From: Acidimicrobiales bacterium
Lineage (GTDB): Bacteria > Actinomycetota > Acidimicrobiia > Acidimicrobiales > Poriferisodalaceae
Assembly: GCA_011051915.1 (NCBI GenBank)
Contig: DRKF01000101.1
Span: 1-15,878, forward strand
Reading direction: 5' to 3'
Length of the DNA: 15,878 bases
In this document: positions 3,868 to 14,700 of the stretch, in pieces
Numbering within the stretch: the first letter of the stretch is position 1
Layout of the letters: each line of letters begins with the position of its first letter
Notes under the pieces: generated by a model
What the model was told of the DNA's origin: nothing
The model's input: the letters and a program-made list of their open reading frames with translations, nothing else
The model's database searches: none
Made by a program: the position numbers and the translations under genes

Positions 3868-5055
3868 TCAGGAACGGGGGATGCCCAGACGGGGATCGGA
3901 TACGGCATCGGTGAAGGCCTCGAGGGCCTCGGGCGAGGACACGACCCGCCAGTCGGTCTCCTTGTCGACCTCGAACCAGATGAACCCGACGACATCGGAT
4001 CGGGAAGCGATGGCGTCGATGACGTGGGAGATCCATCCCGCCTTCTGTCCCCCGTCCTCGGTGGCGCCGATCTCCGTGATCACGATGGGTCGGTCGGTGA
4101 ATGATCTGACGATGTCGATGGTCGGGCCGAACAGCTGATCGAAGGTGGGTACGTAGACGGAGGGGTCGATCCCGTTTCCGAGGTAGCCCACCAGCCCCAC
4201 CCAGTCGACGTAGTCGTCACCGGGGTAGAGGCCCTCCAGCGGGGTGAGGTTCGGATCGTCCAGGTTCGGATTCCACACCCAGATCACCTGATCGGCCCCG
4301 GCCCGGGTGAAGATGTCGTGCACGTGGCGCCAGGCGGCGACGTACTGTCCGGAGCGATTGCCGTTGGTGCTCTCGGCCCAGGGATACCAGTAGCCGTTCA
4401 TCTCGTGGGCGAACCGGATGGCCACGGGTCGGTCCCATTCGGCCAGCCCGGCGGCCCACTGCTCTATCTCCTCGTCGAAGTCACCGGCGATGATCCGGGC
4501 CAGGGCGTACTCGGGCTGTTCTCCCCGGCGACGATCGAACGTCGACTCCACCGTGTGGTCCCACGGTTCCCAGGCGATCATCGGAAGGTGCCCCGCCGCG
4601 GTGATCTGCTCGATCGTGGTCAGGTCGAAGTCGGGGGTGGCCCAGTCCCGGCTGATCATCACCACCTCGGGGTCCACGCCGGTCGCCCGGCTGAACTCCT
4701 CCACCTCGGCGAGTTCGCCGTTGGCTGTGCTCACACCGACGAAAGTGGTCCCCGGAGTGCCGACCAGGTCCATCCACGCGTAGGGATCGGGGGGAACGGC
4801 GGTGGTGGTGGGCCCGGTGGTTTCGGGGGGCCCCTCGGTGCCGGTGGTGGAGGGAGCCGGGTCCGGGGTGGACGAGGCCACGGTGGTGACCGGGGTGGCA
4901 GTGGTCGACGTCGGCCGGGGTACCAGGGTTGTCGGGGCGGATGTGGCGGCATCGCTGCTGGTGGCGGGCGACGACCAGGTCGCGAGAACACTGATCAGCC
5001 CCATCGCCACCACGGCGAGGACTATCACCAGTTGTGCGGTCCGGCCCTGGGTCAT
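3868..5055 (-). CDS. Membrane-anchored or secreted glycoside hydrolase family 26 (beta-mannanase/lichenase-type) protein with an N-terminal Pro/Thr-rich linker
   Basis: N-terminal hydrophobic anchor (LVIVLAVVAMGLISVLA), then an approximately 60-aa S/T/P-rich linker, then a catalytic domain with the GH26 signature RFAHEMNGYWYPWA (HEMNG.W..W motif, acid/base Glu) and VITEIGA (nucleophile Glu). It is divergent from the GT2 synthase gene. Confidence 0.7.
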   Translation of the reverse strand: MTQGRTAQLVIVLAVVAMGLISVLATWSSPATSSDAATSAPTTLVPRPTSTTATPVTTVASSTPDPAPSTTGTEGPPETTGPTTTAVPPDPYAWMDLVGTPGTTFVGVSTANGELAEVEEFSRATGVDPEVVMISRDWATPDFDLTTIEQITAAGHLPMIAWEPWDHTVESTFDRRRGEQPEYALARIIAGDFDEEIEQWAAGLAEWDRPVAIRFAHEMNGYWYPWAESTNGNRSGQYVAAWRHVHDIFTRAGADQVIWVWNPNLDDPNLTPLEGLYPGDDYVDWVGLVGYLGNGIDPSVYVPTFDQLFGPTIDIVRSFTDRPIVITEIGATEDGGQKAGWISHVIDAIASRSDVVGFIWFEVDKETDWRVVSSPEALEAFTDAVSDPRLGIPRS

Positions 5056-5258
5056 GATCTATCCATCGGAAGCAACCCGCCCATACATAGTGATGGCGAG
5101 GTCTCCCCGGTCACAACCCACTCCTCGCGGGGGAGGAAGAACGGGAGGACCCTCGCTGCCCGGGCGCGACCCGCACCGGTGAGCGCAGCACCTAAGTTCC
5201 CGGGGGTCTCCACCCGATCGGAACCTGATGTACTCCTCGATCCCGGAGATCCCCACCC

Positions 5259-7211
5259 GTGCGTGAGGTGGATCTCTCCCGACCCCCCCATTCGGTTCCG
5301 CTGGCCACCTCCCTGGGAGGGTTGGAGCTGGCGGACGCCCCTCCGCCGCGTAGTCCGGCGGCCAGATCCGCTGTACACGCCCTGGCCCTGCTCACGGTGG
5401 TGGTGACCCTCGGATACCTGGGCTGGCGTCTCCTGTTCACGGTCAACTGGTCCGGCTGGTGGCTCTCCGTTCCCCTGTTCCTGCTGGAGGCCCATCTGGG
5501 TCTGAGGATGATCGTCACCATCGTCGAGCTGTGGGACACCGACACGATCGATCCTCCCGAACCGGTGTCGTCCCTGGCACCGGCCGGGCTGAGGGTGGCG
5601 GTTCTGATCACGACCTACGACGAGGGCCCCGAAGTGCTGCTGCCCACGGTCACCGCGGCGCTGGGGTTGAGCCCCGCACACGAGACGTGGATCCTCGACG
5701 ACGGTCATCGGCCCCAGGTGAGAGCCATGGCGGCGGCCCTGGGGGCCCGGTACCTCACCCGGCCCGACAACTCCCACGCCAAGGCCGGGAACATCAACCA
5801 CGCCCTGGGGGTGGTGGAGGCCGATCTGGTGGCGATTCTCGACGCCGACCACGTACCGGAACCCGACTTCCTCAACCACACCCTGGGCTACTTCGAGGAT
5901 CCCGCGGTGGCCCTCGTCCAGACCCCGCAGGAGTTCTACAACAACGACTCGTTCATCCACAGCGGTGGGGACGGCTTCCACGAGGAGCAGTTCTTCCACC
6001 GGGTGATCATGCCCGGCAAGAACCGGTGCAACGCCGCCTTTTGGTGTGGCACCAACGCCGTACTCAGGGTGGCCGCCCTCGACTACGTGGGAGGGGTCTC
6101 GACCTCGACCATCACCGAGGACATGCACACCACGCTGAGACTGCACAAGGCCGGCTGGCGGACCGTTCACCACAACGAGGTCCTGGCCCGGGGACTCGCC
6201 CCCCGGAACTTCGCCGAGTTCCAGACCCAGAGGTGGCGATGGGGAGCGGGGGCCATGCAGTCGGTGGCCATGGAGAATCCACTCGTGTCGTCGGGGCTGA
6301 CGCCGGGGCAGCGGATCATGTACCTGGGCTCGGCCCTGAGCTGGTTCGACAGCTGGCGGACCCTCGGTTTCCACATCGTCCCCGCTGTGGTCCTCCTGAC
6401 CGGGGTCGCCCCCCTCACGGTTCCCTTCGGGCAGCTCCTGGCGGCCCTCGCCGTGGTTCACCTGCTCCACATGTCCACCAGCCGGGTGATGAGCCGGGGC
6501 CGGTTGCGCCTCCGGTCGACCCTGCTGTTCGAGGTTCTCAAGATGCCGGCGAACATCAGCTCGTCGCTGATCTACCTGCGACCGAGGAAACTGAGCTTCG
6601 AGGTCACTCCCAAGGGTCGTACCGGAACTGGTCGCAGTCGGCACTCGGTCCCGGTCATGATCAAGGCCCTGATCACCCTGGACGTCGTCGCCTGGGCCTG
6701 GGCCACGGCCACCATGGCGGGGCTGACTCCCGTCGGCTATCCGGGCCGGTTGCCGGCCCTGGCCGGGGTGGCCTGGCTGCTGATCAACCTCACCTTCCTG
6801 GCCCTGGCCGCCGAACGGATCCACGACGCGGGGTTCGGGTCGGAACGAAGGGCCGGTCACCGGGTGGGACTCTCCGTCCCGGCCCGAGTCGCCTGGAGCG
6901 GTGGTCCCGGAGGGGGCGATCATGGCGTCACCGCCATGGTGGAGGATGTTTCCCTGGCCGGGGCCGGCCTGGTCGTCGCCGCCGGGTCCCCGGTTCCCGA
7001 GGTGGGCTCCGAAGTCGTTCTCACCGTGTTCCTGGGCGCCGTACCCGTGACCCTGACGGGGTTCATCCGAAAGAGCACCGATCGTGGGTCCAGCGGGGAG
7101 CACTCGTTGGGAATCGAGTTCTCCGAGGGGCAGTGGCGCGATCTCTCCCGCCTGGCGAATGCCCTCTTCCGTGCCGGTCTGACGTCGAGGTTGGTTCCGG
7201 TGGCGGCGTGA
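5259..7211 (+). CDS. Processive family-2 glycosyltransferase (cellulose-synthase/BcsA-like beta-glycan synthase) with a C-terminal PilZ c-di-GMP-binding domain
   Basis: Two N-terminal TM helices, then a GT-A domain with ILDDGHRP (DDG), ILDADH (DxD), ITEDMHT (TED) and QTQRWRWG (QxxRW). Multiple C-terminal TM helices follow. The PilZ domain carries RRAGHR (RRxxxR, nt about 6846-6863) and, about 28 aa later, DVSLAG (DxSxxG, nt about 6945-6962). GTG start at 5259; the exact start is uncertain. Confidence 0.88.
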   Translation: MREVDLSRPPHSVPLATSLGGLELADAPPPRSPAARSAVHALALLTVVVTLGYLGWRLLFTVNWSGWWLSVPLFLLEAHLGLRMIVTIVELWDTDTIDPPEPVSSLAPAGLRVAVLITTYDEGPEVLLPTVTAALGLSPAHETWILDDGHRPQVRAMAAALGARYLTRPDNSHAKAGNINHALGVVEADLVAILDADHVPEPDFLNHTLGYFEDPAVALVQTPQEFYNNDSFIHSGGDGFHEEQFFHRVIMPGKNRCNAAFWCGTNAVLRVAALDYVGGVSTSTITEDMHTTLRLHKAGWRTVHHNEVLARGLAPRNFAEFQTQRWRWGAGAMQSVAMENPLVSSGLTPGQRIMYLGSALSWFDSWRTLGFHIVPAVVLLTGVAPLTVPFGQLLAALAVVHLLHMSTSRVMSRGRLRLRSTLLFEVLKMPANISSSLIYLRPRKLSFEVTPKGRTGTGRSRHSVPVMIKALITLDVVAWAWATATMAGLTPVGYPGRLPALAGVAWLLINLTFLALAAERIHDAGFGSERRAGHRVGLSVPARVAWSGGPGGGDHGVTAMVEDVSLAGAGLVVAAGSPVPEVGSEVVLTVFLGAVPVTLTGFIRKSTDRGSSGEHSLGIEFSEGQWRDLSRLANALFRAGLTSRLVPVAA

Positions 7212-7352
7212 GGACGGGAGAAGCAGAGAAGATCGCGACCGGGGGGCGGCGCCCGGCGTCCTCTGTGCGTAGTAGAAACTGAGGTGGTCTCCAATTTGGC
7301 GGCCACGTGCTACCGGAACACAGGACGTACTCACCGACACGGAGGATGGGAC

Positions 7353-7547
7353 ATGGGTCTCAAGGACTTCGCCGACAAGGCCAAGGATGCTCTCGGGGAT
7401 GCCCGCGAGAAGATCGAGGACGTGGCCGAGGCCGCCGTCGACAAGGTCGACGACATGACCGGGGGGAAGGTTCCCGACAAGGTCAAGGATCTCGTCGACA
7501 AGATCGACGGCGAGGACGACGACGCCGCCGAGGGCGCAGAGAGCTGA
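7353..7547 (+). CDS. Small acidic protein (64 aa), MT0933-like antitoxin / CsbD-like general-stress family
   Basis: ATG at 7353 has a GGAGGA SD 7 nt upstream. The sequence MGLKDFADKAKDALGDAREKIEDVAEAAVDKVDDMTGGKVPDKVKDLVDKIDGEDDD has the KAKD..G...DK.TGGK..DK.D pattern of the MT0933/Rv0909-like family. Confidence 0.6.
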   Translation: MGLKDFADKAKDALGDAREKIEDVAEAAVDKVDDMTGGKVPDKVKDLVDKIDGEDDDAAEGAES

Positions 7548-7644
7548 ACCCGGTGGAAGGGGGATGACCCTCCTCCGGTGGCAATCGCCGATCCGCGTCC
7601 CCTCGGGTGAACCGGACCCGGTGGTCACCGATCGAGAATGAACC

Positions 7645-7771: not shown

Positions 7772-9175
7772 TCAGATCGGGATGATCTCGGCCGGAACTC
7801 CCTCGGGCATCAGGGTGGAGTCGCGCAGGTCGATCGTCGGTTCCGACGCCTCGGTCCCCTGCGGCGCCCCCGATTCGGAGTCGGCTGGGTTCCCGGCGGC
7901 GGGCTCGGCCGCGGCGGCCAGCTCGGTGCGCAGGTCCCTCAGTTCGGCCCGGAACCCGTGCACCAGGTGGGCGAGGGTGATCTCCTCGAGGTCGCTGCCT
8001 CTCATGGTGTTGATGGTGTCGGCCAGTTCGGTGGCGGTCACCACCCCGGGAAGAGCCGAGTTCGAGCGGAGTTCGGCCAGCTCGGCCGACATGTCGTACA
8101 CCGCGGTCGACAGGTCGGCTGTCTCGGCCTCCACGCCCTCCATCGTCGACAGCCGTGCCGCCATGTCGTCCACGGTGGCGGAGAGCCGTTCGATGGACGA
8201 CGCCTGGCGTTGATGGGCGGCCATCAGCTCCCTCCGGACGGCGACCACCGTCTCGGCGAGGTTCTCCACGGACTCCTCGATCCGGCGGGTGTCACCCGAC
8301 GGTCGATCGTCGGCGACGGCCTCGCGTCGTAGTTCCACCATCGCCCGGGCCAGTTGCTCGATGGAGCGGTTGACCGTCGCGATCTGTTCGCTTCCGGCCA
8401 CCTCGGTACGGATCTCGGCCCGCAGCAGATCCACGCCCTCGGTCAACAGAGCCAGGTTCTCATAGAGGCTCTCGACGCGGGCGGGAAGGTCGAGCAGGGG
8501 TACGAGCGTCTCGTGAACGGTGTCGACGGTGCGGGCCGTCGCGGCAACCGTGTCGGGAACAGCGGCCAGGGCCTCCTGGGACCGGACGAGCTGATTGACC
8601 TGTTCGTGGATACGCCCCAGACGGGTCGGGGTCGCCGCCAGGGCCTGGGCCATCTCCAGCAGCCTGTCGATGCGGGGATCGGGTTCGGTCGGCTCCTCGG
8701 GTTCGGCCATGACCTGGAGGATCTCGAGGACCTGGCCCAGCCGAGGGTCGGACACGGGTTCGTTGCGCAGTTCTTGGAGCAGACCCAGCATCTGTTCGAT
8801 ACGTGGGTCTGCGGCGGTCACCGGAATCTGCCCGATGCGCGGGTCTGCGGCGGTCACCGGTATCTGTTCGACTCGGGGGTGGATGCCGGCTCCCACACTG
8901 GTGATGGGTCCCGGGGTGTTCACCGGGGGAGGGGTGCTGTGGTTTCCCGTCGTGGTCGGGTTGGCGGCGGGTGCGGGCCACCAACCGCCGGTGGCGGCCG
9001 GCGGTGCCGAGGGTGACAGCCGTCCCGGCTGGGCGATGATCTGCTCGCACCCGGGGCGTAGTCCGGCGCAGGTCGTTCCCGTCGAGGGGCAGACGCAGTA
9101 GCCGCCCTCCGGTGCGACCGTCATGGCGGAGTCGTCACCGTCCAGAGCGATTCCGAAGTCGTAGCAGTAACCCAT
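7772..9175 (-). CDS. Hypothetical 467-aa protein with a Cys-rich N-terminus, Pro-rich linker, DPR(I/L)xQ repeat block and long coiled-coil C-terminal region
   Basis: The minus-strand ORF has protein-like composition, whereas the overlapping plus-strand ORFs are Arg/Gly-rich artefacts. The GGAGGG SD lies before ATG 9175. The repeats are HPRVEQ / DPRIGQ / DPRIEQ / DPRLGQ / DPRIDR. The C-terminal 300 aa show a Leu/Glu/Ala/Arg-rich heptad pattern. Confidence 0.6.
   Translation of the reverse strand: MGYCYDFGIALDGDDSAMTVAPEGGYCVCPSTGTTCAGLRPGCEQIIAQPGRLSPSAPPAATGGWWPAPAANPTTTGNHSTPPPVNTPGPITSVGAGIHPRVEQIPVTAADPRIGQIPVTAADPRIEQMLGLLQELRNEPVSDPRLGQVLEILQVMAEPEEPTEPDPRIDRLLEMAQALAATPTRLGRIHEQVNQLVRSQEALAAVPDTVAATARTVDTVHETLVPLLDLPARVESLYENLALLTEGVDLLRAEIRTEVAGSEQIATVNRSIEQLARAMVELRREAVADDRPSGDTRRIEESVENLAETVVAVRRELMAAHQRQASSIERLSATVDDMAARLSTMEGVEAETADLSTAVYDMSAELAELRSNSALPGVVTATELADTINTMRGSDLEEITLAHLVHGFRAELRDLRTELAAAAEPAAGNPADSESGAPQGTEASEPTIDLRDSTLMPEGVPAEIIPI
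8796..8867. repeat. Imperfect 36-bp tandem duplication inside the coiled-coil gene, encoding IPVTAADPRIGQ / IPVTAADPRIEQ
   Basis: cgatacgtgggtctgcggcggtcaccggaatctgcc is followed directly by cgatgcgcgggtctgcggcggtcaccggtatctgtt, with 5 mismatches in 36. Confidence 0.8.
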
Positions 9176-9389
9176 CTCAGTCCCGCCCTCCGTGTGGCCC
9201 GTGGGTACACAGACCCCGGTACCGCCGGTGGCGGTCGCGTATTCCCTCAGCGGTCATCAATCCACCCCGGATTCTCGTCCCGCGGACCCCAGGGCCCGCG
9301 CTGTCGTCTCCGGGGCTCGTCGGCGGCGGCGGACAGTGGGTTAGGAGTGGGAGATCGGACCGCCTCCCCGGTCGGATTAGTTTCGGGGA

Positions 9390-10382
9390 ATGACGATCGA
9401 CGCTCTGAACCTCTCCGGTGCCCCGACCCCCCTCCAGAGGGCGGATCGACTCGGGCGGGAGCTGGGATTCCAGCCCGGTGCCCTGATGATCAAGCGCGAC
9501 GATCTGACCGTGTTCGGGGTGGGAGGGAACAAGGCCCGCAAGCTCGACCATCTCTGCGCCGATGCCCGGAACCGGGGTTGTCGGACCCTGGTCACGGGTG
9601 GAGCCGTCCAGAGCAACCATGTGCGCATGACGGCGGCGGCCGCGGCGATGCTGGGCCTGGAGTGTGTCGTGGTGCTCGGGGGTCGGGAGGACTCGCCCAT
9701 GGAGGGGAACCTGCTCCTCGACCGCGTGTTCGGCGCCAGAACGGTGTTCACCGGCGCGGTCTACTCCGATGAGTTGGAGGAGGCCATAGCGGAGGAGGTC
9801 GACCGCCTGGACAGCCGGGGTGAGGCTCCGTATCTCATACCCCTCGGAGGCTCGTCCCCGATCGGGGCCCTGGGTTACGTCGACGCCGCCCGGGAGATAG
9901 CTGCGGAGGCCTCCGGAGCGCCGGTGGTCTACACCGCCTGTGGATCGGGAGGCACCCACGCCGGTCTGGTCGCCGGTCTGGGTGACCACGCCCGGGTGGT
10001 CGGGGTGGATGTCGGCGCGGTCCGCGACATCGGGACCAAGGTCGCTTCCCTGGCCCCGATGACGGCGGCGGCGGCCGGGATGGCCGAACCGAGGGGGGAG
10101 GTGAGGTTGGTGAGCGGCCAGATCGGTCGTGGCTACGGAGCACCCACCGAGGCCGCCCGGGAGGCCATCCTGCTGGTGGCGCGAACGGAGGGAATAGTGC
10201 TGGATCCGGTGTACTCGGGCAAGGCCATGGCCGGGCTTGTCGCCGATCGGCGGGAGGGACGCCTGGGGAGCGATCAGCCCACCGTGTTCGTGCACACCGG
10301 TGGCCTTCCCGCCCTGTTCACCTCCCGCTACCGCGACTGGCTGGCGGGGAACGGGAATGCGGTGGCTTCCGACGGACAGTGA
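9390..10382 (+). CDS. PLP-dependent D-cysteine desulfhydrase / 1-aminocyclopropane-1-carboxylate deaminase family enzyme
   Basis: TPLQR...MIKRDDLT..GGNKARKLD is the Lys-containing PLP motif of the ACC deaminase/DcyD fold-type II family, followed by a Gly-rich CGSGGTHAG loop. Length is 330 aa. Confidence 0.8.
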   Translation: MTIDALNLSGAPTPLQRADRLGRELGFQPGALMIKRDDLTVFGVGGNKARKLDHLCADARNRGCRTLVTGGAVQSNHVRMTAAAAAMLGLECVVVLGGREDSPMEGNLLLDRVFGARTVFTGAVYSDELEEAIAEEVDRLDSRGEAPYLIPLGGSSPIGALGYVDAAREIAAEASGAPVVYTACGSGGTHAGLVAGLGDHARVVGVDVGAVRDIGTKVASLAPMTAAAAGMAEPRGEVRLVSGQIGRGYGAPTEAAREAILLVARTEGIVLDPVYSGKAMAGLVADRREGRLGSDQPTVFVHTGGLPALFTSRYRDWLAGNGNAVASDGQ

Positions 10383-11567: not shown

Positions 11568-13028
11568 ATGGTGGTCATGATCGATCCCCAACTCGTCAGA
11601 GCCTCGGTGGAGACCGCGTGGGATTCGGGAATCGTGGACGTGCTGCGGCGCTACATCGAGATCCCCAACAAGAGCCCGGCGTTCGACCCCGGGTGGTCCG
11701 ACCACGGCCACATGGATCGGGCCGTGGAGATGTTCGTCGCCTGGGCCCGGTCCCGGCCCATCGACGGTCTGACGGTGGAGGTGGTGCGTCTGAGCGGACG
11801 GACCCCGCTGATCCTCATCGAGGTTCCCGCCACCGCGGCCGGGTCCGACGAGGATCCCGACCGCTCCGAACCCCGGACCGTTCTTCTCTACGGGCATCTC
11901 GACAAGCAGCCCGAGATGGAGGGCTGGGACGCCGACAAGGGTCCCTGGCAGCCGGTGCTCGTCGGTGAACGTCTGTACGGCCGCGGTGGGGCCGACGACG
12001 GCTACGCCATGTTCGCGGCCCTCTCGGCGGTCGAGGCCGTCCGGGCGGCGGGGGGCAGCCACTCCCGTCTGGTGATCATGATCGAGGCATCGGAGGAGTC
12101 GGGCAGTCCCGATCTCCCGGCCTACGTGGACCATCTCGTTCCCCGCCTGGGGACGGTCGACCTCGTCGTGTGCCTCGACTCGGGGGCCGCCGACTACGAC
12201 GCCCTGTGGGTCACGACCTCGCTTCGGGGTCTCGCCGGCGGGACCCTGGAGGTGACGATGCTCGAGGAGGGCCTCCACTCGGGCTCGGCCAGTGGCGTGG
12301 TCCCCTCGACGTTCCGGATACTGCGCCATCTCCTGGATCGGGTCGAGGACTCCGCGACCGGGCAGATACTGCTTCCCGAACTGAACGCGCCGATTCCCGC
12401 CTCGGTGGTCACCGCCGCGGTGGAGTCCGCCGAGGTCCTCGCCGACGAGGTAGTCGAGTGCCTGCCCTTCGTGGAAGGGGCCCGGGCGGTGTCCGATGAC
12501 GTGGCCGAACTCGTGGTGAACCGGACATGGCGCCCGACGCTCTCGGTGACCGGACTCGACGGTGCACCCCCACCCGAGGACGCCGGGAACGTGCTGCGCC
12601 CCCGAACCCGGGCGAAACTGTCGTTCCGGCTGCCGCCCACCGTGGACAGTCAGGCGGCCCTGGAGGCGATCGAGCATGCTCTGACGTCCGATCCTCCCTA
12701 CGGGGCCCGGGTGGAGCTGACCGAGGGGGAGGCCGGTCCGGGTTGGTGCGCTCCGGAGCTCGAACCGTGGCTGGCCGCGGCCCTCACCACCGCCTCGGAG
12801 ATCCACTTCGGTCGCCCGGTGGGATTCCAGGGCGAGGGGGGCTCCATCCCCTTCATGGGCATGCTGGGTGAGAGGTTTCCCTCCGCCCAGTTCGTGGTGA
12901 CCGGGGTGCTCGGACCGGGCTCCAACGCCCACGGCCCCAACGAGTTCCTGGATCTCCCCACCGCTCGCCGGCTGACCGCGTGCGTGGCCCACGTTCTCGA
13001 CGGGCATGCCACGAGGAGCCGGTCATGA
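11568..13028 (+). CDS. M20/M25/M40-family metallopeptidase (dipeptidase/carboxypeptidase-like, with dimerisation domain)
   Basis: LLYGHLDKQP (metal-binding His/Asp), RLYGRGGADDGYAMFAAL (the M20 G-x-x-DDK/G motif), IMIEASEESGS (catalytic Glu-Glu). Length is 486 aa. Confidence 0.85.
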   Translation: MVVMIDPQLVRASVETAWDSGIVDVLRRYIEIPNKSPAFDPGWSDHGHMDRAVEMFVAWARSRPIDGLTVEVVRLSGRTPLILIEVPATAAGSDEDPDRSEPRTVLLYGHLDKQPEMEGWDADKGPWQPVLVGERLYGRGGADDGYAMFAALSAVEAVRAAGGSHSRLVIMIEASEESGSPDLPAYVDHLVPRLGTVDLVVCLDSGAADYDALWVTTSLRGLAGGTLEVTMLEEGLHSGSASGVVPSTFRILRHLLDRVEDSATGQILLPELNAPIPASVVTAAVESAEVLADEVVECLPFVEGARAVSDDVAELVVNRTWRPTLSVTGLDGAPPPEDAGNVLRPRTRAKLSFRLPPTVDSQAALEAIEHALTSDPPYGARVELTEGEAGPGWCAPELEPWLAAALTTASEIHFGRPVGFQGEGGSIPFMGMLGERFPSAQFVVTGVLGPGSNAHGPNEFLDLPTARRLTACVAHVLDGHATRSRS

Positions 13029-13089: not shown

Positions 13090-13290
13090 ATGACCGACGG
13101 AACCCCCGAGATGTTGAAGTTCGAGTGTCCGCGTTGCCACCGGGAGACGTCGGCCCGGTTCTACGGCCCCTGTGAGGAGTGCCGTGAGGAGCTGATCGCC
13201 ACCCTCGGTGGTGAGGCCAGAGATGTCGAGGTGGCCGAGTACGAACCGAAGATGAACGTCACTCCCAACCAGGTCGCCACCAAGGACTAG
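13090..13290 (+). CDS. Small zinc-ribbon protein (66 aa), CPRC-x11-CEEC; its 3' end is the first unit of a 68-bp tandem repeat
   Basis: ATG 13090 has GGAG 8 nt upstream. It lies about 60 bp downstream of the M20 peptidase on the same strand. It has four Cys in two CxxC pairs. The last 20 codons plus the stop are re-copied three more times downstream. Confidence 0.5.
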   Translation: MTDGTPEMLKFECPRCHRETSARFYGPCEECREELIATLGGEARDVEVAEYEPKMNVTPNQVATKD

Positions 13291-13498
13291 ACGTGAAGGT
13301 GGCCGAGTACGAACCGAAGATGAACGTCACTCCCAACCAGGTCGCCACCAAGGACTAGACGTGAAGGTGGCCGAGTACGAACCAAAGATGAACGTCACTC
13401 CCAACCAGGTCGCCACCAAGGACTAGACGTCGAGGTGGCCGAGTACGAACCGAAGATGAACGTCACTCCCAACCAGGTCGCCACCAAGGACTAGACGT
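13223..13498. repeat. Direct tandem repeat array: 68-bp unit repeated four times with no spacers (MIRU/VNTR-like minisatellite)
   Basis: The unit is acgt[g/c][a/g]aGGTGGCCGAGTACGAACC[g/a]AAGATGAACGTCACTCCCAACCAGGTCGCCACCAAGGACTAG. TAG stops fall at 13288, 13356, 13424 and 13492, exactly 68 bp apart. Only 3 variable positions occur among the copies. Each unit contains the mini-ORF MNVTPNQVATKD*. Confidence 0.95.
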
Positions 13499-13539
13499 TC
13501 GGCGGGTGATCCCGGTGAGACTGGCCCGTCGAGGTGCGA

Positions 13540-14700
13540 TCAGGTCAGGCTCGGGGCCAGTCGGTCCAGGGCCCGGGCGATCTCGTCACGGTCCCCGGCG
13601 TAGCTGAAGCGCACATAGCGGTTGCCGCGGGTCGGGTCGAAATCGATGCCGGGGGTGGCGGCCACACCGAGTTCGCTCAACCAGCGACGGCACAGATCCT
13701 GACTGTCGTCGGTCAGGTGGGAGACGTCCGCCCACACGTAGAAGGCACCGTCGGCGGGGGCCAGGCGATCGAGACCCATCTCGGGCAGGCGGGAGACCAT
13801 CAGGTCCCGGTTGGCCCGGTAGCGGGCCACGTTGGCGTCGAGCTCGGCGGTGGCGTCGAAGGCGGCCACGGCAGCCAGTTGGGCCAGGGTCGGGGGCGCG
13901 ATGGTGAGGTTCTGGGCCAGTCTCTCGACCGGAGTCAGCAGGCCGGTGGGCAGCACGGTCCATCCCAGGCGCCAACCCGTCATCGAGTAGTACTTGGAGA
14001 AGCTGTTGACGACTATGGGGTCCCCGGGAAGTCCCACGGCCGTCTCCGCCGGGGTCCCGAAGGTGATGCCGTGGTAGATCTCGTCGGAGATGAGGGTGAT
14101 GTCCCTGGTGGCGCAGTACTCCGCCAGTTCCGCCAGGGCCCCGGGGCGCAGCACCGTGCCCGTCGGGTTGGACGGACTGGCGAGCATCACCCCGTCGAGA
14201 TCCCCGGCGGCCTCCAGGTCGTCGGGCGTCAACCTGAACCCGGACTCCGCCGACAGAGGTACGTCGACGGCTTCCATGCCCAGGGCCGTCAGGGTATTCC
14301 GGTAGCAGGGATAGCCGGGGCTGGTGACCGCCACCCGGGAGCCGGGAGCGAAGGCGGCGATGAAGATCAGGACGAACGCCCCCGACGCCCCCTGGGTGAC
14401 CACAATCCGGGACGGATCCACGATCTCGTCGTACCAGTCGGCGTAGTGGGCGGCTATGGCCTCCCGCAGGGGCTGGTGGCCCAGAGCGACGGTGTAGCCG
14501 AGACGGTCGTCGTCGAGGGCTCTGCGGGCCGCCTCGAGCACCGCGGCGGGAGCCGGTGTCGCCGGCTGGCCCACCTCGAGGTGCAGCACCTCCAGGCCCG
14601 CCTTCTCGCGGGCGGCGGCCTCTCTCATCACCTCCATCACGTGGAAGGGGGGAATCAGGTGGCTGGGAATCTGGCGACGATCGTGCTGAGCTCCGTTCAC
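13540..14700 (-). CDS. Class I/II PLP-dependent aminotransferase (aspartate/aromatic aminotransferase-like)
   Basis: N-terminal PSHLIPPFHVMEVM, TSPGYPCY, ASPSNPTG, and NSFSKYYSMTGWRLGW (the SxSK PLP-Lys motif followed by the conserved Arg region). GTG start at 14700. Confidence 0.85.
   Translation of the reverse strand: MNGAQHDRRQIPSHLIPPFHVMEVMREAAAREKAGLEVLHLEVGQPATPAPAAVLEAARRALDDDRLGYTVALGHQPLREAIAAHYADWYDEIVDPSRIVVTQGASGAFVLIFIAAFAPGSRVAVTSPGYPCYRNTLTALGMEAVDVPLSAESGFRLTPDDLEAAGDLDGVMLASPSNPTGTVLRPGALAELAEYCATRDITLISDEIYHGITFGTPAETAVGLPGDPIVVNSFSKYYSMTGWRLGWTVLPTGLLTPVERLAQNLTIAPPTLAQLAAVAAFDATAELDANVARYRANRDLMVSRLPEMGLDRLAPADGAFYVWADVSHLTDDSQDLCRRWLSELGVAATPGIDFDPTRGNRYVRFSYAGDRDEIARALDRLAPSLT

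Follow-up and report, generated by a model that had tools for sequence, protein, structure and literature searches.

Bacterial VNTRs in general are formed by slipped-strand mispairing or by unequal recombination. Microhomology-mediated tandem duplications, which are independent of RecA, are known from the genetics of Escherichia coli and Salmonella, where those usually studied are kilobases long. The locus described here had initially been likened to a third system, the MIRUs of mycobacteria. Their tandem units measure 46-101 bp (PMC3914561). In the summaries given of the original work, MIRUs are interspersed, with related units at many loci, 41 of them in H37Rv (Supply et al. 1997, 2000, summarised in PMC3914561 and PMC12548453). 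They are apparently mobile and insert at start codons, and the ORF of the element, at a -4 spacing from the downstream gene, is coupled to it (PMC12548453).

The window, the whole stretch of 15,878 nucleotides analysed here, contains one strong tandem array. TRF places it at 13229-13498, with a period of 68, 4.0 copies, 98% matches, no indels and a score of 519, and finds no other strong array. When every base is compared with the one 68 nt further on, the array extends over 13221-13498, or 4.09 units. It consists of four head-to-tail 68-bp units without spacers, and a 45-nt core gives four matches with at most one mismatch where dinucleotide shuffles lead to an expectation of 0.00. All the unit borders that follow are on the plus strand and are those of the register comparison.

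Unit 1 (U1, 13221-13288) is the native coding tail of the preceding gene. It starts AGATGTCGAGG, contains the left-border microhomology AGATGT and the junction bases CG, and is identical to the single copy found in two public contigs (L002 and L085). U2 (13289-13356) starts AGACGTGAAGG, with a derived GA junction and with CCG inside; in another public contig (L004) U1 is also followed by the GA junction of U2. U3 (13357-13424) has the same start, AGACGTGAAGG, and the same GA junction, and CCG has become CCA, a change that is synonymous in the frame of the tail. U3 with its variants is found again in three other assemblies (L001, L003 and L088). U4 (13425-13492) starts AGACGTCGAGG, and its CG junction is the primary junction expected from a duplication mediated by AGAYGT. 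A partial fifth unit, AGACGT at 13493-13498, forms the right-border microhomology, matching the AGATGT of 13221-13226 at five of six bases. Unique sequence begins after it, and the native intergenic sequence of 13499-13539, as defined by gene coordinates and sequences, is common to the one-copy allele. The GA junction is thus common to U1/U2 and U2/U3, and the G to A change lies in U3 alone. Differences between units number three in 204 extra bases (~1.5%).

These results bear out most of what the initial annotation had read directly from the DNA. It had described four head-to-tail 68-bp copies with three variable positions, and in its register these are the CG/GA dinucleotide and the G/A; the extended register adds one further difference in U1, T/C at offset 4. 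Translation of 13090-13290 verifies its statement that the first unit forms the last ~20 codons and the TAG of a 66-aa CxxC...CxxC gene. Each later unit does contain VAEYEPKMNVTPNQVATKD-TAG and an ATG mini-ORF, and the arms of the GGTGGC...GCCACC inverted repeat are present in the unit. The array also lies, as was said, in the gap between convergent genes, the M20 peptidase on the plus strand and the aminotransferase on the minus strand being identified by Pfam.

The zinc-ribbon mini-gene from which U1 is drawn lies at 13090-13290 on the plus strand. Its 66-aa product, MTDGTPEMLKFECPRCHRETSARFYGPCEECREELIATLGGEARDVEVAEYEPKMNVTPNQVATKD, has the motifs CPRC...CEEC and ends in VAEYEPKMNVTPNQVATKD directly before the stop codon, and the last ~20 codons and TAG are those of unit 1. 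Unit 1 closes with an in-frame TAG of its own, which is why copy number does not affect the protein. The earlier claim that changes in copy number never extend the protein therefore stands, while the reason offered for it, that 68 is not a multiple of 3, is irrelevant. The 66-aa gene is called on four public contigs. Its frame is open further upstream as far as another ATG, at 13006, from which the product would have 94 aa and the gene would overlap the end of the M20 gene; the ATG at 13090 is favoured by the public gene calls (66 aa) and by a GGAG motif before 13090. The N-termini of the homologues are of variable length.

Homologues of the protein number 966 at E ≤ 0.01, and most among those listed are 57-88 aa in length and end in ...TKD. 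A genome scan places the family at no fewer than 585 species loci, nearly all labelled as Acidimicrobiia or Actinomycetota MAGs. In an alignment of 26 members the most conserved segment is the C-terminus, YEPKMNVTPNxVATKD, ahead of the zinc-binding core, and YEPKMNVTPN is invariant or nearly so. In the tail codons of 43 species the first and second positions are fixed and third positions vary by 0.2-1.6 bits. Conservation therefore acts at the level of the protein and not at that of the nucleotide sequence or the RNA. The protein has no Pfam match above threshold, with sub-threshold matches to DUF7129 (20.2 bits against a 30-bit cut-off) and HypA, and no match in NCBIfam. A PDB profile search returned only generic zinc-ribbon ribosomal proteins, at E ≥ 0.005. 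The protein is a member of a large uncharacterised and unannotated family.

Upstream and co-oriented lies the gene of an M20 family peptidase (11568-13028, plus strand; Pfam PF01546 and PF07687). It precedes the zinc-ribbon gene in only 3 of 80 other-species loci, and so is not a conserved partner. Downstream and convergent is a class I/II PLP aminotransferase (13540-14700, minus strand; Pfam PF00155, E = 2e-56, and NCBIfam), which public gene calls give as 365 aa at 13540-14637. The sole certain physical effect of the array is to widen the stop-to-stop gap of these convergent genes, which is 45 nt in the one-copy allele and 249 nt in the window. A functional link of the zinc-ribbon gene to the M20 peptidase or to the aminotransferase was considered and rejected, as the context is conserved at few loci only. 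Clustering of the neighbours at ~80 zinc-ribbon loci revealed a variable gene neighbourhood with no dominant partner. The largest cluster, at 20 of the ~80 loci, is a convergent gene ~22 nt downstream of the zinc-ribbon gene, which by eye we take to be a luciferase-like oxidoreductase.

At 80 Acidimicrobiia loci from other species the tail motif does not occur a second time, whichever frame is read. The closest species among the species representatives returned (L005, 83% amino acid identity) has the same convergent aminotransferase, and there the gap is an unrelated 105 nt with no repeat. Because the family is widespread, the tail is its most conserved segment and no other species of the 80 has a second copy, the array is a local, lineage-specific re-copying of coding sequence together with 8 nt downstream, and not an inserted element. 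One copy is the ancestral state, since all other species have one. Two further candidates were discarded. Capture of the gene by a repeat is ruled out by the tail being the most conserved segment of the protein with freely varying synonymous sites, and a repeat that recurs as a feature of the family is ruled out by its absence from all 80 loci and by the unrelated gap in L005.

Public contigs were recovered by exact-protein look-ups. The identical four-unit array is present in a k127 contig from a hydrothermal-vent run (L001, SRR4453772), which has 15 SNPs in 9681 nt relative to the window, and in GCA_026990965.1 (L003), with 8 SNPs in 5885 nt. A k141 contig (L088, ERZ27262687) ends inside the array, reading partial U2, GA, U3(A), CG, U4 and tail. 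L004 (JOHN19-1, SAMN10217895) reads U1-GA-U2, then 100 N, then the tail. Since the k-mers of the k=127 and k=141 assemblies each span two junctions, the GA-to-GA and GA-A-CG combinations must occur in single reads. Logan contigs assembled at k=31 from three runs (SRR13853571, SRR7787236 and SRR8439053) begin or end at the array borders. The three right-hand contigs, one per run, start no more than one base from the earliest 31-mer to include a tail-specific base. On the left-hand side one contig (L096, SRR7787236) ends at the last 31-mer with the U1-specific T, and another (L095, SRR13853571) ends 4 nt further into the array. Such breaks at unit ends imply that the reads hold both continuations, unit then unit and unit then tail. 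At the equivalent of 13498 a Logan contig (L090, SRR13853571) has a 1-nt insertion exactly at the right border of the array, AGACGGTTCGG as against AGACGTTCGG; the extra base is a strain variant, or else an error of sequencing or assembly at the repeat edge. Literature look-ups with the run, project and assembly accessions gave no match.

The window, L001 and L003 each have four copies; L088 shows no fewer than 2.8 and L004 no fewer than two. A single copy is present in L002 (JOHN19-1, SAMN10217877) and in L085/L089 (JGI 3300028400). L002 and L085 have in common three linked SNPs, 15164G, 15180T and 15753C, which are absent from all the covering contigs that are repeat-bearing or broken (the window, L001, L004, L088, L090 and, in part, L091 and L092). 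The JGI one-copy contig starts exactly 126 nt before the first tail-specific base, so that unique flank, U1 and tail all fall within its first 127-mer. A k of 127 is the usual maximum for 150-nt reads. If, as we assume, the contig was assembled at k=127, the one-copy k-mer would be present in the reads, and the start of the contig would mark the branch to a multi-copy allele in the same sample. The data argue that the one-copy contigs are real alleles and not collapses made by the assembler, although with assembly-based evidence they could in principle be such collapses. A difference in copy number between near-identical strains, one versus at least four, is supported by these assemblies, with two states seen. 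The variation between strains anticipated in the initial annotation is thus seen (one copy in L002 and L085, and three to four or more in the window, L001, L003 and L088). Its term hypervariable is not borne out, as only two states were seen (one, and four or more) and the four-copy array is identical in several strains; polymorphic is the better word.

A second minisatellite of variable copy number is found within the window. This is a 36-bp repeat at 8790-8871, inside a minus-strand ORF (7772-9175), with 2.3 copies in the window and 4.1 in L003 (1402-1550). The host protein is 467 aa in the window and is called as 491 aa in L003, and it has no Pfam match. As 36 is a multiple of 3, changes in copy number keep the reading frame. 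This repeat too breaks assemblies, as both L002 and L004 start there (window positions 8782 and 8758). TRF also reports an imperfect tandem repeat at 1566-1628, of 33 bp in 1.9 copies with 80% matches and nested periodicities of 6 and 12 bp. Elsewhere an 858-aa ORF on the minus strand (5052-7628), with no Pfam match, overlaps two plus-strand genes called in L001, at 6255-7211 and 7353-7547. These encode a 318-aa protein with a weak PilZ match and a 64-aa protein that resembles the MT0933 antitoxin, and the 858-aa ORF is probably a shadow ORF of high-GC DNA. A minus-strand ORF at 9177-10295, antisense to a PALP-domain gene (9390-10382, plus strand), resembles this case.

The one-copy allele points to how the array may have arisen. 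In L002 the sequence reads ...GCCAG-AGATGTCGAGG...AAGGACT-AGACGTTCGG..., with AGATGT and AGACGT, an imperfect 6-bp direct repeat, exactly at the borders of the unit. Crossover or slippage at these two hexamers predicts a junction in which AGACGT is followed directly by CGAGG, and the U3/U4 junction matches this. We propose that in a one-copy ancestor replication slippage or illegitimate exchange would have taken place between short imperfect direct repeats, the AGATGT in codons 44-46 and the AGACGT whose first base is the A of the TAG stop codon. Duplication of the intervening 68 bp would have created the predicted junction, and slipped-strand mispairing or unequal recombination between units could then have raised the number to four. 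CG would have changed to GA in one unit that was then copied, giving U2 and U3, with G to A following later in U3. At any copy number the 66-aa protein would be unchanged; the array would be tolerated because each unit carries a stop codon and unit 1 stays in frame.

Expansion by slippage had been suggested from the outset, and with microhomology at the borders and the predicted junction between U3 and U4 slippage or unequal exchange is very likely the origin of the array. The order of events given here is our reconstruction, and neutrality is suggested by the absence of signal. Taken as a whole, we think it likely that the array is a lineage-specific minisatellite, near-neutral under selection, that was built from the 3' end of the gene itself. 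The suggestion that it is recent or actively homogenised fits less well. The same three variants, in the same order, are present in four assemblies that differ by SNPs elsewhere, and the array has therefore been stable across the divergence of the strains. The differences between units (~1.5%) exceed the divergence of the flanks between strains (0.1-0.5%), and the array could be older than assumed, or maintained.

Several other explanations must be set against this origin from the gene's own end. All of the sequences come from short-read metagenome assemblies, and assemblers evidently struggle at the locus, leaving the 100-N gap of L004 and several contigs that end in or at the array. An array of this kind might then be created by a loop in a de Bruijn graph that is traversed repeatedly, or by strain variants unrolled into tandem copies. 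Yet independent assemblies at k=127 and k=141 give the same order of the four units, the assemblies with the array differ by SNPs elsewhere, and the k=31 contigs of three further runs branch at unit ends. Graph assemblers are more prone to collapse a tandem repeat than to expand it, and four copies is therefore a lower bound. The assembly artefact that the initial annotation had allowed for is thus extremely unlikely, the ordered variants recurring in three other assemblies. A MIRU-type element, a member of an interspersed and possibly mobile family that overlaps the end of a gene by chance, would also be a spacer-less tandem array with a unit of this size (68 bp, within the 46-101-bp range; PMC3914561), with small ORFs, an overlap with a gene end and a copy number that differs between strains. 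Here, however, the homology of the unit with the conserved C-terminus of a gene family of at least 585 species runs codon for codon, and none of the 80 other-species loci examined has the repeat; the gene was the source of the unit and not the site of its insertion. The interspersed copies envisaged at first did not appear. We found no further copy of the unit in the 15.9-kb window at up to three mismatches, nor in the other fetched loci, and an exact search with a 46-nt core, which misses diverged copies, found this locus only in 241 million JGI metagenome records that include the organism's own sample. This leans strongly against dispersal of the unit to other loci. The setting is convergent, whereas MIRUs lie at start codons and couple to a co-oriented gene (PMC12548453), and the host belongs to the Acidimicrobiia and not to Mycobacterium. 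We regard a MIRU-type element as very improbable.

The array might instead be a functional 3' extension, either by modulating, as a spacer or an RNA element, how far the convergent zinc-ribbon and aminotransferase transcripts read through and overlap in antisense, or through mini-ORFs translated by termination and reinitiation to give free copies of the conserved tail peptide. The widening of the gap, with no terminator detectable in either allele, is in keeping with the former, and the array is stable across several strains. For the latter, U2 and U3 gain a GTG through their CG to GA change; it lies 3 nt past the TAG before it, has AAGGA 6 nt upstream, and opens a 21-aa ORF, VKVAEYEPKMNVTPNQVATKD, in whose frame the sole internal substitution (CCG to CCA) is synonymous. 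Against this, folding of the RNA is no better than that of shuffled sequences. The minimum free energy of the array is -99.3 kcal/mol, that of shuffles averages -101.3 (z = 0.40), and single units (U2 on both strands, and U1) and the one-copy allele give z from -0.44 to 0.61. A consensus scan gave no terminator-like or promoter-like site, and Rfam no match at the gathering threshold or at E ≤ 1. The 6-bp arms of the inverted repeat are fully complementary at only 4 of 76 family loci, and are therefore a by-product of Val-Ala and Ala-Thr codons, incidental to codon choice. A structural RNA or terminator role is accordingly rejected, and with it the early proposal of a terminator or 3'-UTR element that affects both genes. 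Shine-Dalgarno energies are -2.5 kcal/mol for the ATG mini-ORF (12 aa) and -4.9 kcal/mol for the GTG mini-ORF (19-21 aa), against a background mean of -5.2 kcal/mol over all 20-mers of the window. Even the stricter value of -5 is reached or bettered by 53% of random 20-mers, and no mini-ORF has a ribosome-binding site better than background. Among the 80 other species none has a tail-only gene or a duplicated tail, a single synonymous change has no statistical weight, and one-copy and multi-copy strains coexist. A functional extension in either version is therefore unlikely. That units 2-4 in particular are active, with termination at TAG and reinitiation 3 nt downstream at GTG releasing free 21-aa VKVAEYEPKMNVTPNQVATKD peptides, is highly improbable. 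If it were so, the dose of a peptide made of the tail alone would depend on copy number, this peptide would mimic the C-terminal interaction motif of the full-length protein or compete with it, and the array would be a gene-fragment amplification that acts as a tunable modulator.

Read as a near-neutral minisatellite, the locus is a clear case in nature of a microhomology-mediated duplication that selection on the protein cannot see, because the stop codon is part of it, and that can grow into a minisatellite. With a difference of ~204 bp it offers a strain marker, by PCR or read length, for co-occurring strains of uncultured Acidimicrobiia, and it illustrates how tandem repeats fragment or collapse short-read metagenome assemblies. 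Its importance is modest. It is no new kind of element, and it does not extend the MIRU family beyond the mycobacteria.

Comparison with the known systems places the array as follows. Like the microhomology-mediated duplications of E. coli and Salmonella, the first duplication is bounded by a short direct repeat, here the imperfect 6-bp AGATGT/AGACGT, and has the predicted junction; unlike them the segment is only 68 bp, and it has since been amplified to four copies with point changes. The resemblance to MIRUs is one of form. A 68-bp unit in the size range, spacer-less tandem arrangement, overlap with a gene terminus, small ORFs and copy-number polymorphism are all found. Unlike MIRUs, the unit was found at a single locus, with no sign of mobility, in a host of the Acidimicrobiia and not Mycobacterium. 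It is not of independent origin, being derived from the conserved coding sequence of the flanking gene, and there is no stop/start overlap with a co-oriented downstream gene. Since the array lies between convergent genes, no translational coupling is possible. Of the MIRU-like locus proposed in the initial annotation there remain the size of the unit (period 68), the tandem form and the copy-number variation seen in assemblies; the independent element and the coupling do not hold, and no dispersed copy was found. Bacterial VNTRs and minisatellites, such as the ETR loci of M. tuberculosis, are closer. They too have spacer-less, high-identity head-to-tail units of tens of bp, a copy number that varies in close strains, short direct repeats at the borders and partial overlap with coding sequence. 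They differ from the present array in that here the unit runs from inside a gene to just beyond the stop codon, so that the extra copies are untranslated pseudo-tails and the protein never changes, and in that only two allelic states (one, and four or more) are seen. The general features of the class, head-to-tail units of ~10-100 bp at one locus with strain-variable copy number, are all present, and the array is an ordinary bacterial minisatellite or VNTR that is MIRU-like in form only.
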